Origin: Candidatus Woesearchaeota archaeon
Lineage (GTDB): Archaea; Nanobdellota; Nanobdellia; Pacearchaeales; GW2011-AR1
Assembly: GCA_964514585.1 (NCBI GenBank)
Contig: CAZETU010000001.1
Location: forward strand, 120,901 to 144,900
Direction of reading: 5' to 3'
DNA length: 24,000 bases
How positions within the stretch are numbered: position 1 is the stretch's first letter; every line of letters begins with the position of its first letter. The translations under genes and the position numbers were made by a program. The notes under the pieces were generated by a model. That model had not been told where the DNA came from and did not search any database. It worked only from the letters and a program-made list of their open reading frames with translations. Positions 3,978 to 10,438 of this stretch are shown piece by piece.

Positions 3978-4027
3978 ACAGAAAATACACAAATATCATA
4001 TATAAATATAGTGATAGCAAAACTTAC

Positions 4028-4057
4028 ATTTCACCAGAAATACCTACTGGGTAAACC
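4028..4057. repeat. Copy D of the ACCA-apex hairpin repeat (atttc-acca-gaaat) followed by acctactgggtaaacc
   Basis: Perfect 5-bp stem at 4028-4032/4037-4041 with loop acca. The adjacent 16-mer at 4042-4057 matches 5662-5677 (tRNA-Arg trailer insert) at 15/16 positions. Confidence 0.6.
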
Positions 4058-4075
4058 AAAACAACATGCGTTTAG

Positions 4076-4340: not shown

Positions 4341-4790
4341 ATGGGAAATATAAAAGTTATCTCTTGGGATGTATACGGAACTTTAATAGCAACACATTAT
4401 GATAAATCCACAGATTGCGGGGACATCCCATTAAAACTTAGACCAAGCGCATTAGAAATTCTAACAGAAATAAAATCAAGACAAATCATTCAATGCACAT
4501 GCTCAGATGGCCACTTGGAAAATCTAAAAAACAATTTAAGAGAAGCAGGAATAAATTGGACAGATTTCTTCGACGATTTATACAAAATGGAACCATTCCA
4601 ACAAAAGGATTTCTCTTACATAATAGAAAATTATAATATTAGACCAGAAAACCTCTTAGTTGTCGGAGACAATTATGATATAGATATCTCTTTAGCAAAA
4701 AGACAAGGTTGCAAAACTTTACACGTCCCAGAAAAAGAAGAGTTCAAAAAGAATCCATTAGACACATCAAAAATACTAGAATTATTATAA
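4341..4790 (+). CDS. HAD superfamily hydrolase (DxYGT subtype)
   Basis: Motif I WDVYGTL, motif II CTCSDG and motif IV VVGDNYDIDI are present. 149 aa. Confidence 0.65.
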   Translation: MGNIKVISWDVYGTLIATHYDKSTDCGDIPLKLRPSALEILTEIKSRQIIQCTCSDGHLENLKNNLREAGINWTDFFDDLYKMEPFQQKDFSYIIENYNIRPENLLVVGDNYDIDISLAKRQGCKTLHVPEKEEFKKNPLDTSKILELL

Positions 4791-4871
4791 ATAGACAGTT
4801 CCGCGTGTTCCCACCAAAGACAGTATGGACACATTAGAACTAGTTAACAAATTCAAAAAATTCTAATTATT
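4789..4871. repeat. Chimeric duplicate: a fragment of the 5S rRNA 3' end fused to a fragment of the rpoN 3' end
   Basis: By my hand alignment, 4789-4832 matches 5442-5485 at 38/44 positions (3' terminus of the 5S gene, minus strand). 4828-4871 matches 4282-4325 at 38/44 positions (last 12 rpoN codons, stop and ttatt). The join is at gacac, which both parents share. Confidence 0.75.
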
Positions 4872-4872
4872 A

Positions 4873-5301
4873 TTAATGCCAGTCATAAAAACCACTACTT
4901 ATAACTTTACTAACAAGATGACGCCTAAGCTCACAATCAGGCATTTGCTCAACCTCTCCATCTCTTATCTGAATGGGCCAACACTGCATTTTTCCTCTTG
5001 CATAATAATCAGGTGATTCTCTTAGATGTTTTTTCGCATCTTCAGGAGACTTACCAAGACAGAAAGCAGATTCATTACATACATAACATTTATCAGGATT
5101 CCCAAAATCATGACGTCTCCTTATGGGAACTTTATAAAGATTCAACTTTTTATTATCTTTTTCGAAATCAAATTCTCCAATCAATAATCCCAGTATTCCC
5201 AGTCCGGCTATTCTATTAAATTGTCTTCTATTCAACATTAAATTAACAAGTGAACCAAGTTTATAATAATTATTGAGATAGATTATTATTAAATTTTTCA
5301 A
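4873..5301 (-). CDS. Hypothetical small Cys-containing protein with a twin-arginine (Tat)-like signal
   Basis: 142-aa ORF. The internal Met22 (start at 5238) gives MLNRRQFNRIAGLGILGLLIG, i.e. an RRxF motif plus a hydrophobic region. The mature part contains CYVC and three more Cys. I recognise no family. Confidence 0.5.
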   Translation of the reverse strand: MKNLIIIYLNNYYKLGSLVNLMLNRRQFNRIAGLGILGLLIGEFDFEKDNKKLNLYKVPIRRRHDFGNPDKCYVCNESAFCLGKSPEDAKKHLRESPDYYARGKMQCWPIQIRDGEVEQMPDCELRRHLVSKVISSGFYDWH

Positions 5302-5388
5302 ATTTTTTCTTTATTCTAATTAATCAGCCGAATAAAGTCAAAAGAAATCAAATTATCTGCGACAAAGTCGGTAAGTAATTTGGAACCT

Positions 5389-5439
5389 AAAATTCTGCAG
5401 AATTTTCCCAATGATTTTTTCACCAGAAAAAATGTTAAT
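5389..5439. repeat. Double-hairpin intergenic repeat, copy A
   Basis: Hairpin 1 is aaaattc-tgca-gaatttt (5389-5406). Hairpin 2 is attttttc-acca-gaaaaaat (5414-5433), a perfect 8-bp stem. 35/48 positions are identical to copy B (6119-6166). Confidence 0.7.
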
Positions 5440-5445
5440 AAAAAT
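5440..5445 (-). terminator. Oligo-T (T5) run directly after the 5S rRNA 3' end
   Basis: The minus strand reads …GAGCTGTCTATTTTTATTAAC. Archaeal RNA polymerase terminates at oligo-T tracts. Confidence 0.4.
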
Positions 5446-5570: not shown

Positions 5571-5582
5571 CATTTTATAAAC
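5571..5582 (-). promoter_or_regulatory. TATA box for 5S rRNA
   Basis: The minus strand reads gTTTATAAAAtg, centred about 25 nt upstream of the 5S 5' end. Confidence 0.45.
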
Positions 5583-5592
5583 TTAACGATTC

Positions 5593-5598
5593 AAAAAA
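5593..5598 (-). terminator. Oligo-T (T6) after the distal tRNA-Arg 3'-end copy
   Basis: The minus strand reads …CAGGAGCGTTGAATTTTTTGA. This is the first T-run downstream of tRNA-Arg. Confidence 0.4.
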
Positions 5599-5620
5599 TT
5601 CAACGCTCCTGACAGGACTT
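5599..5620 (-). repeat. Exact 22-nt copy of the tRNA-Arg 3' end (no cloverleaf partner)
   Basis: ttcaacgctcctgacaggactt is identical to 5683-5704, at an offset of 84 nt. Confidence 0.9.
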
Positions 5621-5687
5621 CACTCACCAGAGGGATGTCAAATGGACGCGATCACCAGATCACCTACTGGGTGAACCTCAGGTTCAA

Positions 5688-5763
5688 CGCTCCTGACAGG
5701 ACTTGAACCTGCGACTTCTTCCTTAGGAGGGAAGCACTCTAATCCAAACTGAGCTACAGGAGC
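5688..5763 (-). tRNA. tRNA-Arg (anticodon CCT)
   Basis: The reverse complement folds as a cloverleaf: GCTCCTG TA GCTC AGTTTGGATTA GAGT G CTTCC CTCCTAA GGAAG AAGTC GCAGG TTCAAGT CCTGT CAGGAGC G. 76 nt, no encoded CCA. Confidence 0.9.
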
Positions 5764-5798: not shown

Positions 5799-5815
5799 AT
5801 GAGGGAAGGAGGATT
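5799..5815 (-). repeat. Exact 17-nt copy of the tRNA-Leu 3' end
   Basis: atgagggaaggaggatt is identical to 5898-5914, at an offset of 99 nt. Confidence 0.9.
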
Positions 5816-5898
5816 AAAAGTCCTTTACGAACTTTTCAGCAAATCTTTGATTTGCGCTTCAAGCTTCTCCGAAGCGCCGGTCGTTCGAATCCGACACA

Positions 5899-5982
5899 TG
5901 AGGGAAGGAGGATTCGAACCCCCGTAAGCATAAAGCTAACAGATCTTGAGTCTGCCCCGTTTGACCACTCCGGCATTCCCTC
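5899..5982 (-). tRNA. tRNA-Leu (anticodon CAA), long variable arm
   Basis: The reverse complement folds as GAGGGAA TG CCG GAGTGGTCAAA CGG G GCAGA CTCAAGA TCTGT TAGCTTTATGCTTAC GGGGG TTCGAAT CCTCC TTCCCTC A. 84 nt. Confidence 0.9.
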
Positions 5983-6003
5983 ATAATATAACTCAATAAA
6001 TTC

Positions 6004-6115: not shown

Positions 6116-6166
6116 GGAATTCTAAAAAATTCCCCTAACGATTTTCACACCAGTGAAAATATTAAT
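6116..6166. repeat. Double-hairpin intergenic repeat, copy B
   Basis: Hairpin 1 is ggaatt-ctaaaa-aattcc (6116-6133). Hairpin 2 is attttcac-acca-gtgaaaat (6141-6160), a perfect 8-bp stem. The stem differs from copy A by paired (compensatory) changes. Confidence 0.7.
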
Positions 6167-6290
6167 TCATCTATGCGCGGCCGTTGATTAGGATCGTTGC
6201 GTAGCTTAGGTTTTTGGTTGGGTATTAGGCGAGATAAAAACCTCAGCCTATCTTTCCTAAGAATGCTGATTAAGAGCCCGACAAAGCCCC

Positions 6291-7538
6291 TTAAATTGCC
6301 TTTGTGGGCGTTTTGTAGCACTTGTTATCTTCTAGTAGCCATTTCCAAACTGGCATCAGAATTATTTCCTTGCTTTCAATTTCAAATTTGTCCTCTTGAT
6401 TATGTGTTAAGATTAGCCCCTGTTTTAGCTTCAATTCATTCATTGCTTCCAGTAAGCCATTTATTTCCCTATCTCTATTTTCTTTATTAAAATCATAGCA
6501 AACCTGAATTGCTTGAATAACTTTTTCTTTCTCTTTAACTATAAAATCACATTCTTTGTCTTTTTGAAAATAAAATATTTCTTTGTATTTTTTTCTTAGA
6601 TTTAGGAATACTTCATTTTCTAGCATTTTCCCTTTATCTTTTGAAAAGGAAACTGAGTTAGCATAAGAGAGTCCATTATCTATGGAATAGACTTTTTTTG
6701 GATTAACTTGCTGTTTTTTGTAGGAGTAGCTAAATTTAGGTATTGTGAAAATTAAATAAGAATCCTCCAAGTAAGAAATATAGTCTATGATTGTTTGGAC
6801 TGATTTGACTTCTAACATTTTTTTAAGAGAGTTTGCGGAGAATTCTTTTCCAACATTACTTAATAAATAAATTGCTAATTTATTTAGTATAGCGGTATTT
6901 TTAATCCCAAACCTATTGACTATGTCTCTCATTAAAACATCTCTTAATAATTCATGCAAGAGAGTTTCGTCATCATCTTTTAAGAATTCTGGAAATCCTC
7001 CTTTGTATAAATAATCTGAATAAGATTTTTCATTTGGTTTCTGCTTGGAGAATCTTAAAAATTCAGTATAAGAAAATGGAAAGAGCTCGTAGCTTAAGTG
7101 TCTTCCAGTAAGTCTTGTCCCAAGTTCTCGGCTTAGAAGTGATGCATTTGAACCTGTTATCATTACTTTGTTTTTTCTGTCCACTAAATATCTAATGAAT
7201 TTTTCCCATTTGTCAATATTTTGAATCTCATCAAAAAAGTAAACTCCTCCAGCGCCATAAATTTCATTAAAAATTTCTTCTGCGATATTGAAATCTGTTA
7301 GCTTAAAACCTTCTAGTCTAGGGTCTTCAAGATTTAGATAATAAAAAACTTTTTGTCCTTTTAGAATTTGATTCAGAAGGGTGCTCTTTCCGCATCTTCT
7401 AATCCCTGCAACAACTAAGGCAAAGGACTTATTCAATTTTATTTCTTCAGTCTTTTCTCTAGAGATACCTTTTTCAGTTGATTCTACCCATTTTCTTTGT
7501 TCTTTTATTACTTTGGTTAGGTCTTCTTTTGTTATCAT
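6291..7538 (-). CDS. AAA+ ATPase with C-terminal DUF4143 domain (COG1373-type)
   Basis: Walker A GIRRCGKST and Walker B VYFFDEIQ are present. The AAA_14-type LTGRHLSYELFPFSYTEFL motif is also present. It is followed by the DUF4143-like region (…GKEFSANSLKKML…YLEDSYLIF…). Confidence 0.85.
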   Translation of the reverse strand: MITKEDLTKVIKEQRKWVESTEKGISREKTEEIKLNKSFALVVAGIRRCGKSTLLNQILKGQKVFYYLNLEDPRLEGFKLTDFNIAEEIFNEIYGAGGVYFFDEIQNIDKWEKFIRYLVDRKNKVMITGSNASLLSRELGTRLTGRHLSYELFPFSYTEFLRFSKQKPNEKSYSDYLYKGGFPEFLKDDDETLLHELLRDVLMRDIVNRFGIKNTAILNKLAIYLLSNVGKEFSANSLKKMLEVKSVQTIIDYISYLEDSYLIFTIPKFSYSYKKQQVNPKKVYSIDNGLSYANSVSFSKDKGKMLENEVFLNLRKKYKEIFYFQKDKECDFIVKEKEKVIQAIQVCYDFNKENRDREINGLLEAMNELKLKQGLILTHNQEDKFEIESKEIILMPVWKWLLEDNKCYKTPTKAI

Positions 7539-7558
7539 GTTTTATATAAGATATTTAA

Positions 7559-7618
7559 TTTTATAAAGGTTTCTATTGGGAATGGAAACTTCTTTCTATT
7601 GGGAATGGAAACCTTTAT
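7559..7618 (-). promoter_or_regulatory. TATA box plus two exact 20-nt direct repeats (period 23) framed by an 11-nt inverted repeat, upstream of the ATPase gene
   Basis: tttctattgggaatggaaac occurs at 7570-7589 and 7593-7612. The outer inverted repeat is ataaaggtttc (7563-7573) / gaaacctttat (7608-7618). On the minus strand cTTTATAAAA (7559-7568) is centred about 25 nt upstream of the ATG at 7538. Confidence 0.55.
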
Positions 7619-7753
7619 GTTAACTCTATCCCCTCCCCTAAGCCCCCCACGTCAGTACTATCATACATACATATTATGCCGACTGACTCTTTGGTAATTT
7701 TGTTTAATTTTCATCGACGATAAACTCTGTCCTACACCCAAGAAATCGGAGTC

Positions 7754-8383
7754 CTATTTTTGGGCTTTTTTTGCTAATTTTACTAGCTTATCTAGCCTCG
7801 ATTTTACATATCTTTTGTCAACTGCATCACCATATTTTTTATATTTTTTCACCTTATTTCTATCCGTCACAACGAAAAACCACTTATCATAATTTTCCAA
7901 AACTTTCAGCTTCTCTTTCATCCTACTAATTTTAGAAAAGATGGAACCCGTTTCAATTTCAATCGCAAATCTCTTTCCACGAATTTCAAAAACAATATCC
8001 GGTTTTTTAGTCACAAATAATTCCGTTTCAATCCCATTCTTTTCTAAGAACTCAGAAATATTCTTAGTTAGAAATAGGTGAGTAAAACTTTCATTATGTC
8101 TTGGGAGCAAAAGAAAGTCTTCCATTTTCCCATTCAAGAGATTTTTATATTTTTTAATTTGATAATCATCATTCAAGAGATATTTGACTTCGTGTTTGGT
8201 TATATTTTTCTTATGAAAATATCTTTTATCTGAATCAACTTTTATATTCACACTTCTTCGATAGGTTCCAATAGGCAGAGGTTTATATGGTTCTTCATCT
8301 TCAGTCTCTTCAGAGTCTAATTCTTCATTTTTATCATCCACAGCATATTCTAAATTTACTTTCCCAATTTTCTTCTTCGGCAT
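7754..8383 (-). CDS. Hypothetical protein with a PD-(D/E)XK-like nuclease-fold motif; probably longer at the N terminus (up to 8647)
   Basis: 209-aa ORF. The C-terminal half reads …THLFL…KKPDIVFEIRGKRFAIEIETGS…WFFVV, a D…ExE pattern in a beta-strand context. The acidic N-terminal region is low complexity. The frame stays open upstream (see findings). Confidence 0.55.
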   Translation of the reverse strand: MPKKKIGKVNLEYAVDDKNEELDSEETEDEEPYKPLPIGTYRRSVNIKVDSDKRYFHKKNITKHEVKYLLNDDYQIKKYKNLLNGKMEDFLLLPRHNESFTHLFLTKNISEFLEKNGIETELFVTKKPDIVFEIRGKRFAIEIETGSIFSKISRMKEKLKVLENYDKWFFVVTDRNKVKKYKKYGDAVDKRYVKSRLDKLVKLAKKAQK

Positions 8384-8622
8384 TTTCTTAATCCTTTCTT
8401 TTTCCTCAAGTTCCCATTTTTTATAATTTCTACGCGATTTGTAACGGAAAAATATTAAGAGGATTATTCCAAGAAAAGCAATAGAAAAAATAGTAATAAT
8501 AAAAATCGGATTAATAATGAAAGAGAATAACTTACTAGGAAATTCTTGAATGTTCTTTTTAATTTTTTGAAGTGGTTCTGCAAGAATGACTAAAAGAGCT
8601 CCTACGGATAATAAAAATGGAA

Positions 8623-9825
8623 CTAATGCGTCGTCAGAAGTTTCAATCTTATTGCCTCCTGAATATTTCCATAAACTCGATTAACATCCACCGTTATCGC
8701 AACCATCTGCCTTTTCATATTTTCAACCTGAACTTCTAGTAACTCTGACCTATTTTCTGATTTTGTAAGTCGCTTTTCTAATTCTGTTTTAGTTACATCA
8801 ATTAGTAAATCCTCTTCAGAAATTGTATCTCTCATCCCAAGCATTTCAGAATAATAATGAATCTTGTCAGATTTCTTCCATCCGAATCTGAATTTTAATG
8901 CTGATTCGGATTTGTATCTTGGCAACCAATAGCAACAACTGCAATGCCTAAAATCATACATTGTTAAATCAGAATATTTCTGGCCTGCCAAGCTTTTTTC
9001 ATCACCAAATAGTTTTTTAGCAACTCTTTTCAAATAACGATTCACGACTGGCGGACTAAATTTGAACAGATAATCTTCTGTATCTAATTCATTCTCCTTG
9101 ATGTATCTTTTAACTAATTCGGAACAAATCATCAGCTTAATCCTTCTTCCGAAAGTTTTGCTTATTTCATCCCGAATGTTCAACTCCTTAAAATCCTTAG
9201 ACAAATCAGAAACTTTCACATTCATTAATTCAGTTGGAGACCTAATTCCTGTATCAAATAAAAACATCACAATCGTCTTATATTTTGGGTTGCAGTTTTC
9301 GGAGAATAATTTTATTTGCTCTTCATTTAAATAAACCCATTTGGGTTTCTCTCTAGAAGTATCTAAGTAAGTTGTAATATCTTCAACCTCTTTTCCCGCC
9401 TTCCTTGCGACTTTTTGATACCAGTGCCAGAATGCCTTAAACATCTTGACAAAGTCTCGTGTCGCCTTATATTCGCGCCCGTCCTGCCGTCTTATCACTC
9501 CCTTTCTCATATCAACAAAGAATTGGCAGAGTTGTTGCTCTGTCAATTTAGTCAAGTCATCAACATCTAAAACTTCTTTAAATTTTCTAGTCAGAAAAGT
9601 TAGTCTGAGCCTAATCGTATTAAGTCTTATAAAACTTCTAGCACCTTTTTTCGAAGATAAGGAAGTGTTGATTCCAAGTTCCATATCAATCAAGTATTGT
9701 AGAATTATTGACGAGTTAGCTCTGGAGAGGTCAGGAATGCCCCCTGCTTCCTTGACTCTATTTTTCCAACGGGTCAGCGACCCTTCGTGGTTATAAGGAT
9801 CAATCTTCATGGTGTCAGTGTCCAC
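8623..9825 (-). CDS. Tyrosine recombinase / phage-type integrase
   Basis: 400 aa with a GTG start. It carries box I FDTGIRSPTEL (catalytic Arg), box II YDFRHCSCCYW (HxxR-like), and a C-terminal …SDKIHYYSEML that holds the candidate catalytic Tyr. Confidence 0.85.
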   Translation of the reverse strand: MDTDTMKIDPYNHEGSLTRWKNRVKEAGGIPDLSRANSSIILQYLIDMELGINTSLSSKKGARSFIRLNTIRLRLTFLTRKFKEVLDVDDLTKLTEQQLCQFFVDMRKGVIRRQDGREYKATRDFVKMFKAFWHWYQKVARKAGKEVEDITTYLDTSREKPKWVYLNEEQIKLFSENCNPKYKTIVMFLFDTGIRSPTELMNVKVSDLSKDFKELNIRDEISKTFGRRIKLMICSELVKRYIKENELDTEDYLFKFSPPVVNRYLKRVAKKLFGDEKSLAGQKYSDLTMYDFRHCSCCYWLPRYKSESALKFRFGWKKSDKIHYYSEMLGMRDTISEEDLLIDVTKTELEKRLTKSENRSELLEVQVENMKRQMVAITVDVNRVYGNIQEAIRLKLLTTH

Positions 9826-9967
9826 ATGGACGCGTTATTTAATAATTGTCGAGAACGAAAGAATATAATAGACTGGACAGGACATCTGCTAATTCTTGTT
9901 TTTTTCTGTTTCATTTAGTTTATTTCTAAACAAAAAGTAGTCCCACCAAGATGCCAAAAAGGTAGAA

Positions 9968-10079
9968 TGCGCGGGCGGGGACTCGAACCCCGGTCATTTG
10001 GTCTCTTCATTGAAGGCAATAGATATTCCATCAACTAAACATTTGGAAGCCAAATATTCTGCCACTAAACTACCCACGC
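9968..10079 (-). tRNA. tRNA-Gly (anticodon TCC) with a 41-nt intron at the canonical 37/38 position
   Basis: The reverse complement folds as GCGTGGG TA GTTT AGTGGCA GAAT A TTTGG CTTCCA[intron]A CCAAA TGAC CGGGG TTCGAGT CCCCG CCCGCGC A. The exons sum to 71 nt. Confidence 0.85.
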
Positions 10080-10102: not shown

Positions 10103-10112
10103 GTTTTAAAGT
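10103..10112 (-). promoter_or_regulatory. TATA box for tRNA-Gly (overlaps the HNH gene stop codon)
   Basis: The minus strand reads aaCTTTAAAAcc, centred about 28 nt upstream of the tRNA 5' end. Confidence 0.35.
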
Positions 10113-10438
10113 TTATTGTTTTTGAAATGTTTTTTCCGATGACAGTTGGAACAAAGGGCCTCACACTTATCTAATTCAGACTTTATTCTTTCGATAGAAA
10201 ATCCATCAGCAACCATTTTAGAAATACCCTCTTCTTTCTTTCCAGTTTTATGATGAAAATCAATAGTAGCAGGATGATCTTCTCCACACAAACAACATCG
10301 CAAAGAGGATTTATGTTTCCGAAACCACGCCCGAATTTCATTTTTACGCTTCTTAACATGGGCCTTTTCTGAAGCTTTATTATTCGCATACCACCTACGC
10401 CTACAATCCCTTCTTTTTTCTAAATCCCTGTATGGCAT
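10106..10438 (-). CDS. Small HNH endonuclease-family protein
   Basis: 110 aa with CCLCG…IDFHHK…N…CSNCHRKKH, i.e. a CxxC…HH…CxxCH zinc/HNH signature. The N terminus is basic. Confidence 0.75.
   Translation of the reverse strand: MPYRDLEKRRDCRRRWYANNKASEKAHVKKRKNEIRAWFRKHKSSLRCCLCGEDHPATIDFHHKTGKKEEGISKMVADGFSIERIKSELDKCEALCSNCHRKKHFKNNKL

Follow-up and report, generated by a model that had tools for sequence, protein, structure and literature searches.

A short hairpin-rich insert between two copies of a tRNA-Arg 3' end in an archaeal genome, and its probable origin as a DNA-level scar

The stretch of DNA considered here, referred to as the window, comprises 24,000 nucleotides (nt) of contig CAZETU010000001.1 (assembly GCA_964514585.1, positions 120,901 to 144,900) from a Candidatus Woesearchaeota archaeon, a member of the DPANN archaea in the Woesearchaeota/Pacearchaeota group, and the subject of this study is a short unit behind its tRNA-Arg gene, in which the 3' end of that gene is present a second time. 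Three RNA genes follow one another on the minus strand: tRNA-Leu(CAA) at 5982-5899, tRNA-Arg(CCT) at 5763-5688, both recognized by Rfam and ARAGORN, and 5S rRNA at 5554-5443, which was identified with Rfam and by comparison with the related loci L020 and L027 and has a promoter-like TATA box at about 5572-5582. The tRNA-Arg gene is intron-less and encodes no CCA; since its contiguous 76 nt score 64.3 bits with the Rfam tRNA model, it is complete without splicing.

The unit is defined by a direct repeat of 22 nt, TTCAACGCTCCTGACAGGACTT, whose exact copies lie at 5683-5704 and 5599-5620, 84 nt apart, as the initial annotation of this DNA had described. With up to three mismatches allowed, these are the only two matches in the window, and none was obtained in any of 100 shuffles. 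Read on the minus strand, the repeat runs from T-loop A57 to the discriminator G73 of tRNA-Arg (17 nt) and includes five further trailer nucleotides, TTGAA. The proximal copy (5683-5704) completes the working gene, while the distal one (5599-5620) is read as a displaced tRNA 3' end. The first nine nucleotides of the trailer (5679-5687), TTGAACCTG, form an exact inverted copy of the 5' half of the T arm (5703-5711), again in agreement with the earlier description, and the sequence of this inverted repeat, CAGGTTCAA, occurs three times in the window against 0.16 expected.

Between the repeat copies lies a hairpin-rich insert of 62 nt (5621-5682), 84% homologous to the insert of L040/L066. Its inverted ends, which had also been noticed before, are imperfect and subterminal, with 10 of 12 positions matching. 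The insert contains a two-hairpin module (5644-5678, minus strand), ACC-CAGUA-GGU followed by GAUC-UGGU-GAUC, and a second, partial C-UGGU-G hairpin, CCCTCTGGTGAGTG, which abuts the distal copy (5621-5634) and is kept in L040. The two hairpins previously singled out for an ACCA apex are indeed present, and they are better regarded as members of a recurring C-UGGU-G type, of which four perfect examples exist in the window. A run of six T (5593-5598) is the first oligo-T tract after tRNA-Arg. The statement that nothing tRNA-like stands upstream of the distal copy was not quite right, as the body of the insert is preceded by AGGTTCA (GCAGGTTCA in L040), which corresponds to the 5' strand of the T stem together with the first part of the T loop.

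The neighbouring tRNA-Leu(CAA) gene offers the parallel case that the initial annotation had pointed out. Here the exact repeat is 17 nt long and extends from T-loop A58 to A73 plus one nucleotide, with a proximal copy at 5898-5914 and a distal copy at 5799-5815, 99 nt apart. The 82-nt insert between them (5816-5897, minus strand) contains an inverted T-arm copy (15 nt, 87% match, 5878-5892), after which come three perfect hairpins. One 20-nt module of this insert recurs, inverted, in the tRNA-Arg trailer of the related locus L055.

For comparison, about 45 related loci were gathered, with the adjacent HAD-hydrolase gene and a 5S pattern specific to the clade as anchors. The orthologous empty sites that had been suggested as a check do exist: no unit is present in L020, L027, L062 and L065, where a spacer of 32-66 nt and then 5S rRNA come after tRNA-Arg. 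The tRNA-Arg genes of L020 and L027 carry canonical introns of 46 and 84 nt; L062 has a 5S identical to that of the window. The window sequence past the distal copy aligns with the L020 spacer directly following tRNA-Arg, and for this reason the distal copy is placed at the ancestral position.

The duplication is not a coincidence. A direct copy of the tRNA-Arg 3' end recurs 25-107 nt downstream of the gene in about ten related lineages. Distal copies are found in the groups L033/L047, L035/L048/L054/L064 and L050/L051 and in L039, L049, L055 and L058, with imperfect ones in L040/L066 and L057, while the controls (3' ends upstream, 5' ends downstream and reverse complements) gave essentially no matches. 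Repeat length varies among loci from 13 to 28 nt and insert length across the Arg and Leu lineages from 12 to 145 nt; in the window and these lineages its first nucleotide falls within T-loop positions 56-59 and its last 1-5 nt beyond the discriminator, as far as the repeat is concerned. The inverted copy of the T-arm 5' half, scored if exact, at least 7 nt long and within 35 nt of the gene end, accompanies 12 of 16 loci with a distal copy, 3 of 49 without one and 1 of 65 upstream controls. The general order is a complete tRNA, a short spacer, an inverted T-arm copy, a partial direct T-arm copy, a hairpin-rich insert and the distal copy. In relatives, moreover, tRNA-Gly and tRNA-Leu show the mirror image of this layout at their 5' ends: the promoter comes first, then a 5' fragment reaching as far as the D loop, a hairpin insert, a copy of the D loop together with its inverted copy and, last, the complete gene.

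It had been anticipated that relatives might reveal the distal copy as the decayed remnant of a tandem second tRNA-Arg gene with no conservation of the inverted trailer. The frequencies just given show that the inverted trailer is conserved. The distal copy is also collinear (T-stem 5' strand, insert, 3' end), the 5' two-thirds of the tRNA are absent in every lineage, and a conserved inverted T-arm copy and a hairpin insert go with it.

Several further observations concern the tRNA-Arg genes themselves. When L020, L027, L034 and L038 are set against the window and L040, tRNA-Arg(CCT) falls into two sequence types. By the author's count, the trailer unit occurs in 10 of 16 distinct intron-less tRNA-Arg genes and in none of 4 distinct intron-containing ones (one-sided p of about 0.04). 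In L055, the minus strand at about 5867-5990 holds the 5' part of a tRNA-Arg, which comprises positions 1-58 and whose anticodon loop is mutated. This fragment breaks off within the T loop, where it is fused to an inverted copy of the insert end that stands behind the intact tRNA-Arg 4.2 kb away, with housekeeping genes in between.

The behaviour of the repeat within a population could be followed because the same locus was found, by exact-protein look-ups, in four independent Antarctic-lake metagenome assemblies from JGI and ENA (L001/L009, L002/L010, L003 and L004). All four same-population assemblies carry three copies of the Arg repeat, with a spacing of 56 and 84 nt, against two copies in the window; besides the repeat itself, the extra unit of the three-copy allele comprises the insert's first 33 nt and a single T. 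Since four independent assemblies contain it, the repeat itself is not an assembly artefact. For the difference between two and three copies an artefact is possible, and the two-copy form of the window is either a variant allele or a collapsed assembly; judging from the sequences, one crossover between repeats of the three-copy form could yield it. A CRISPR-like array (clustered regularly interspaced short palindromic repeats) was also considered and rejected, as the 'spacers' of the three-copy allele have 33 nt in common, which indicates a tandem duplication. Furthermore, the tRNA-Leu of L040 is followed by two identical 73-nt units, and the difference between L064 and L035 amounts to unit homogenisation. 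Array expansion and homogenisation are both directly visible and account for the fact that the copies mostly stay identical.

Other loci illustrate decay and the exchange of alleles. Between the window and L040, identity is 99% for 5S rRNA, 84% for the insert, 78% for the adjacent spacer and 84% for the tRNA-Arg gene, so that no purifying selection on the insert is seen in this comparison. The two tRNA-Arg genes are of different sequence types despite the 99% identical 5S, so that the tRNA-Arg gene has been swapped between close relatives. The close relatives L033 and L049 have near-identical flanks and inserts of 89 and 12 nt, respectively. Decayed distal copies are present in L036, L033 (Leu) and L062, while those of L040, L057 (both Arg) and L035 (Leu) bear the acceptor strand of another functional allele, as would be expected if the distal copy were the displaced resident end. 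Finally, the earlier claim that the first oligo-T run comes only after the distal copy holds for the window and not for all relatives: a T5 run stands right behind the tRNA in L035 and a T6 run within the insert of L033, so that transcription would stop earlier and the distal copy would seldom be transcribed there.

A comparable duplication affects the 5S rRNA gene. A displaced, diverged copy (about 85%) of its last 44 nt or so, detected by repeat search, lies at 4789-4832 on the minus strand, next to the end of the HAD-hydrolase gene; it occupies the ancestral position. In relatives the 5S directly abuts that gene. The same pattern of gene, small open reading frame (ORF) and 5S 3'-end copy is found in the window, L041 and L050, with a different ORF in each. 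In the window, the segment after 5S rRNA measures about 650 nt (4789-4866 and 4873-5442) and has a 142-amino-acid ORF of unknown function. At 4828-4866 there is a copy of the rpoN 3' end, encoding DTLELVNKFKKF and a stop, fused to the 5S fragment at a shared GACAC. The distal flank also matches the 3' end of rpoN over 13 nt, which was given no weight, about 0.7 such matches being expected by chance in 5.5 kb. The finding is more general than one locus, as it recurs at other tRNAs and at 5S, and the recurrence of one layout at many tRNA and 5S genes suggests a recurrent way of rearranging tRNA genes.

The hairpins of the insert have relatives elsewhere. An ABC-transporter operon is preceded, at 4023-4058 and on the strand of the insert, by a motif to which the 35 nt of the insert's two-hairpin module are paralogous (45.7 bits); this motif is also present in L033, and the stems covary between copies. 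Perfect C-UGGU-G hairpins with different stems occur on the minus strand at 4023-4058, 5415-5434, 5650-5663 and 6141-6160. All are intergenic and on the strand of the RNA genes, where a random tetraloop has a mean of 0.57 per strand, and L033, L036 and L040 have similar ones; a role as terminators or as sites bound by a protein is conceivable. A covariance model built on the module with two hairpins and run over 243 kb returned no copies beyond the four training sites and one duplicate locus, and a high-copy dispersed repeat was rejected on this ground. Nor do the features agree with a miniature inverted-repeat transposable element, the inverted ends being weak and subterminal, the repeat of no fixed length and further dispersed copies absent from the 243 kb. 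Rfam, used both at the gathering score and at E <= 10, recognized only tRNAs and 5S and no family for the insert. A C/D box guide for T-loop methylation, which would call for conserved C (RUGAUGA) and D (CUGA) boxes on either side of the guide, was likewise rejected, because L040 does not preserve the CUGA and GUGAUC-like strings of the window and because the guide register is shifted by one.

Taken together, the readings in which the 84-nt unit is a DNA-level scar are judged likely with good confidence, and the unit probably has no function. Among the individual mechanisms, the one tentatively preferred, at somewhat less than an even chance, is an integrase-type integration followed by reduction and reshuffling. 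A short hairpin-rich DNA would have entered tRNA-Arg at the block that begins in the T loop and stops slightly beyond the 3' end, and would have left this block twice: the proximal copy would complete the gene, and the distal copy would be the displaced end, now standing before the original spacer and the 5S promoter and presumably without function. Such an event would most likely be a site-specific recombination with mobile DNA bearing a tRNA-like attachment segment, whose element body was later deleted, or else the movement of a miniature cassette by an integrase encoded elsewhere. A recombinase would accordingly be responsible for both the Arg and the Leu insertions, and the inverted T-arm copy may be an element-side binding half-site. 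The locus now acts as a small tandem repeat, in which unequal crossover or gene conversion alters the copy number (two or three in the population) and keeps the copies identical, and template switching has probably patched in local sequence.

An integrase gene in the window and a true integrase element in a relative provide the context for this proposal. The tRNA-Gly(UCC) gene (9968-10079, minus strand), detected with Rfam and missed by a default ARAGORN run, has an intron of 43 nt (Rfam) or 41 nt (ARAGORN) at the canonical position, which marks the organism as an archaeon, and it is directly followed by a tyrosine-integrase gene (9825-8623, minus strand; 400 amino acids; PHROG integrase, E = 8e-17) about 3 kb from the Arg unit. 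The likely integrated element downstream of tRNA-Gly (6173-9967) comprises the integrase, a 209-amino-acid ORF and an AAA_14/DUF4143 ATPase (7538-6291); its right end is probably GCCGCGCAT at 6173-6181, which matches the tRNA-Gly 3' end at 9 of 10 positions. In the same-population contig L002/L010, different genes (301 and 390 amino acids) lie past the ATPase. An exact 20-nt tandem repeat, TTTCTATTGGGAATGGAAAC, is present just upstream of the ATPase gene, with two copies 23 nt apart at 7570-7612. In addition, an HNH-endonuclease-like ORF of 110 amino acids (10106-10438; PHROG E = 4e-22), found in L040 as well, is situated between tRNA-Gly and secF. Among the relatives, L054 has the homologous element, which measures 4.7 kb and carries on both flanks a 14-nt repeat taken from the 3' end of tRNA-Gly, and L050 and L060 have a 79-nt insert bounded by the same tRNA-Gly block.

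The tRNA-Arg unit has much in common with an attachment site: a direct repeat of the 3' part of a tRNA with an intact gene, the canonical sublocation and an empty site in relatives. The region from T loop to 3' end is one of three tRNA regions used by bacterial and archaeal integrases (PMC8371274), and integrases targeting the 5' half of tRNA genes are known too (PMC8371274). The geometry of a recombinase core site, proposed in the initial annotation, was borne out in part, in that the boundaries match the attachment block; the arms of the inverted repeat, in turn, are 15 nt apart in the window and 15-17 nt in general, about twice the usual 6-8 base pair (bp) overlap of tyrosine-recombinase core sites.

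That spacing is one of several observations which weigh against an integrase origin. In none of about 14 lineages does the interval between the Arg or Leu repeats contain an integrase or another gene of an element. Three exact-pattern scans of viral contigs gave no relevant match to a free attachment site of an element (attP), and a further pattern scan gave unrelated matches only; the zero matches to tRNA-Arg patterns in the first genome and metagenome scans are a weak test, since those collections did not include this population. Far-distance repeats of tRNA-Arg or tRNA-Leu bracketing an element were not found in the fetched loci, tRNA-Gly in L054 being the only case that qualifies. No sequence is common to the tRNA-Gly mini-inserts and either end of the integrase element, and the idea that mini-inserts are deletion derivatives of this neighbour was rejected for that lack of likeness. 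The inverted copy followed by a partial direct T-arm copy amounts to a junction palindrome, a structure more often expected from fold-back template switching. The motif 1.6 kb away is paralogous to half of the insert, and microhomologies, TTGAA and AAGT, can be read at the two outer junctions; both facts suggest templated filler rather than element DNA. Finally, the covariation of the hairpin stems between copies hints at some structural constraint.

Several of these points also speak for the strongest competing account, which comes close behind although it is on the whole somewhat unlikely: template switching during replication or repair, without any mobile element. According to it, replication would stall, or a break occur, at the structured tRNA gene; the nascent strand would turn back onto the T arm and so produce the inverted copy, then copy nearby stretches and re-enter at the single-stranded T loop, so that the gene end is copied twice, and the products that survive would be those retaining one intact tRNA. 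Besides the microhomologies, the 35-nt paralogy and the lack of element genes in any Arg or Leu insert, it would explain why palindromic junctions lie exactly between complete and partial copies, at 3' ends as well as at mirrored 5' ends, why inverted and direct copies always derive from the local tRNA, why a hairpin module is common to tRNA-Arg, tRNA-Leu and tRNA-Gly trailers in either orientation, and how the 5S and rpoN fragments came to be joined at GACAC. However, random errors would hardly be expected to strike identical loop positions in so many lineages and at three different tRNAs, the conserved termini of the inserts (GYGAGYA) stand next to more than one tRNA, and different ORF cassettes occupy one 5S site in three lineages. 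Moreover, distal copies from other alleles fit imported DNA more easily, and the search of the window yielded no template for 17 of the nucleotides in the Arg insert and for the greater part of the Leu insert.

A further reading, considered unlikely, is that Woesearchaeota-type archaea may have a dedicated process that inserts small hairpin cassettes into the D and T loops of tRNAs and the 3' end of 5S. It might be the work of a miniature mobile element, or of a recombinase whose substrate is the folded DNA of tRNA genes, and the adjoining gene end would be duplicated by it directly as well as in inverted form.

In another account, the inserts would be miniature non-autonomous elements targeting the D and T loops, and direct and inverted duplications of the target would arise from them, for instance by target-primed copying with strand switching. 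Insert sizes are narrow (the spacing is 57-58 nt for tRNA-Gly leaders in four species and 63-107 nt for trailers), and insert families are common to different tRNAs, the flanking copies being in each case those of the tRNA concerned; one and the same tRNA-Arg sequence is empty in L065 and carries a family A-like insert in L035 and a family C insert in L055, where the tRNA-Arg 5' fragment cut in the T loop is joined to an inverted family C end. This account is nevertheless quite improbable: the repeats have no fixed length, terminal inverted repeats are weak, the covariance model of the best-conserved module found nothing new, no transposase is associated, and the layout is produced by no known mechanism.

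A functional role at the RNA level appears highly doubtful. The trailer would be a structured RNA controlling pre-tRNA folding or processing, termination or insulation of the 5S promoter, with the inverted copy sequestering the T arm and the distal copy pairing with the 5' acceptor strand. In the minimum free energy folds, the 5' acceptor strand does find its partner in the distal copy, and the 5' half of the T arm finds its own in the inverted trailer (z = -2.0 and -3.6), which makes the competing RNA helix suggested in the initial annotation thermodynamically plausible; in addition, the hairpins recur with a constant C-UGGU-G loop and varying stems, and proximal and distal copies usually co-vary between species. 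For that helix, all the same, there is no sign of selection, since the insert is conserved no better than the adjacent spacer. Many relatives lack the unit, close relatives range from 89 to 12 nt, the T runs of L035 and L033 leave the distal copy rarely transcribed, and the co-variation of the copies is explained by the unequal crossover observed.

A non-canonical T-loop intron, with the distal copy as true 3' exon and 84 nt spliced out, can be set aside as very improbable: the repeat boundary does fall in the T loop, where non-canonical archaeal introns occur, and the trailer does keep to intron-less tRNA-Arg genes in the count given above, but the gene is complete without splicing, the distal acceptor strand of L040 and L057 mismatches the 5' strand, and no equal-offset splice pair forming a bulge-helix-bulge motif, with H >= 3 and both flanking helices >= 2, was obtained in a scan of low sensitivity, which caught 1 of 4 known introns of the clade.

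The case bears on how archaeal tRNA genes become split, permuted or gain non-canonical introns. The main published model of tRNA-gene disruption is the integration of mobile elements, for which few cases exist. The present clade holds dozens of small, datable intermediates at three tRNAs and 5S rRNA, including empty sites, fresh exact duplications, tandem arrays, decayed relics and relics of older alleles, and this range makes the process testable by comparative genomics and population reads. If the unit is a scar, it has no cellular role of its own and its value resides in the insight into tRNA-gene rearrangement; if a dedicated insertion process is at work, the loci represent natural intermediates for tRNA fragmentation, the gain of non-canonical introns and allele swaps. 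There is also a practical side, as partial tRNA copies and long structured trailers can mislead tRNA finders, collapse in assemblies and mimic attachment sites.

Among known systems, the attachment-site (att) duplications of tyrosine integrases come first to mind; a 2002 study by Williams reportedly treats the attachment sites of integrase elements in tRNA genes. The likeness lies in the direct repeat of a tRNA 3' part starting in the T loop or 3' end region, in the intact gene restored on one side with the displaced end on the other, and in the real example at tRNA-Gly in this clade. In contrast, the inserts described here have only 12-145 nt and no element genes, and they show an inverted and then direct partial T-arm copy as well as hairpin modules shared across tRNA trailers. 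In Caldiarchaeum subterraneum, a tRNA-Thr fragment is associated with a recombinase element (Sugahara et al. 2012, PMC3293823), and this locus was proposed as a route to disrupted tRNA genes (PMC3293823). It resembles the present one in having a partial tRNA copy by a complete gene and in being heterogeneous in a natural population, although its copies are separated by a 1.8-kb recombinase-encoding element, whereas here they are tens of nucleotides apart and several tRNAs and both gene ends are involved.

Related to the streptococcal integrative conjugative elements, cis-mobilisable remnants flanked by att sites accrete in tandem. Their arrays of repeat-insert-repeat-insert-repeat, with integrase-less remnants between attachment sites, recall those seen here, but the remnants are kilobases long, and in the present loci mobilisation is only putative. 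Microhomology-mediated repair gives rise to templated insertions and fold-back junctions, which are normally one-off; the short direct and inverted copies of flanking sequence and the junction microhomologies are alike, while the layout considered here recurs at the same tRNA loop positions across lineages. Casposons, which are characterized by a fixed target duplication of 14-15 bp, Cas1 and terminal inverted repeats, also insert at the 3' end of tRNAs with target duplication and form tandem arrays with a common duplicated segment, yet none of those three hallmarks is present in our loci. The tRNA-Arg unit and its counterparts are thus best filed as a miniature, recurrent variant of the duplication of tRNA ends by DNA insertion.

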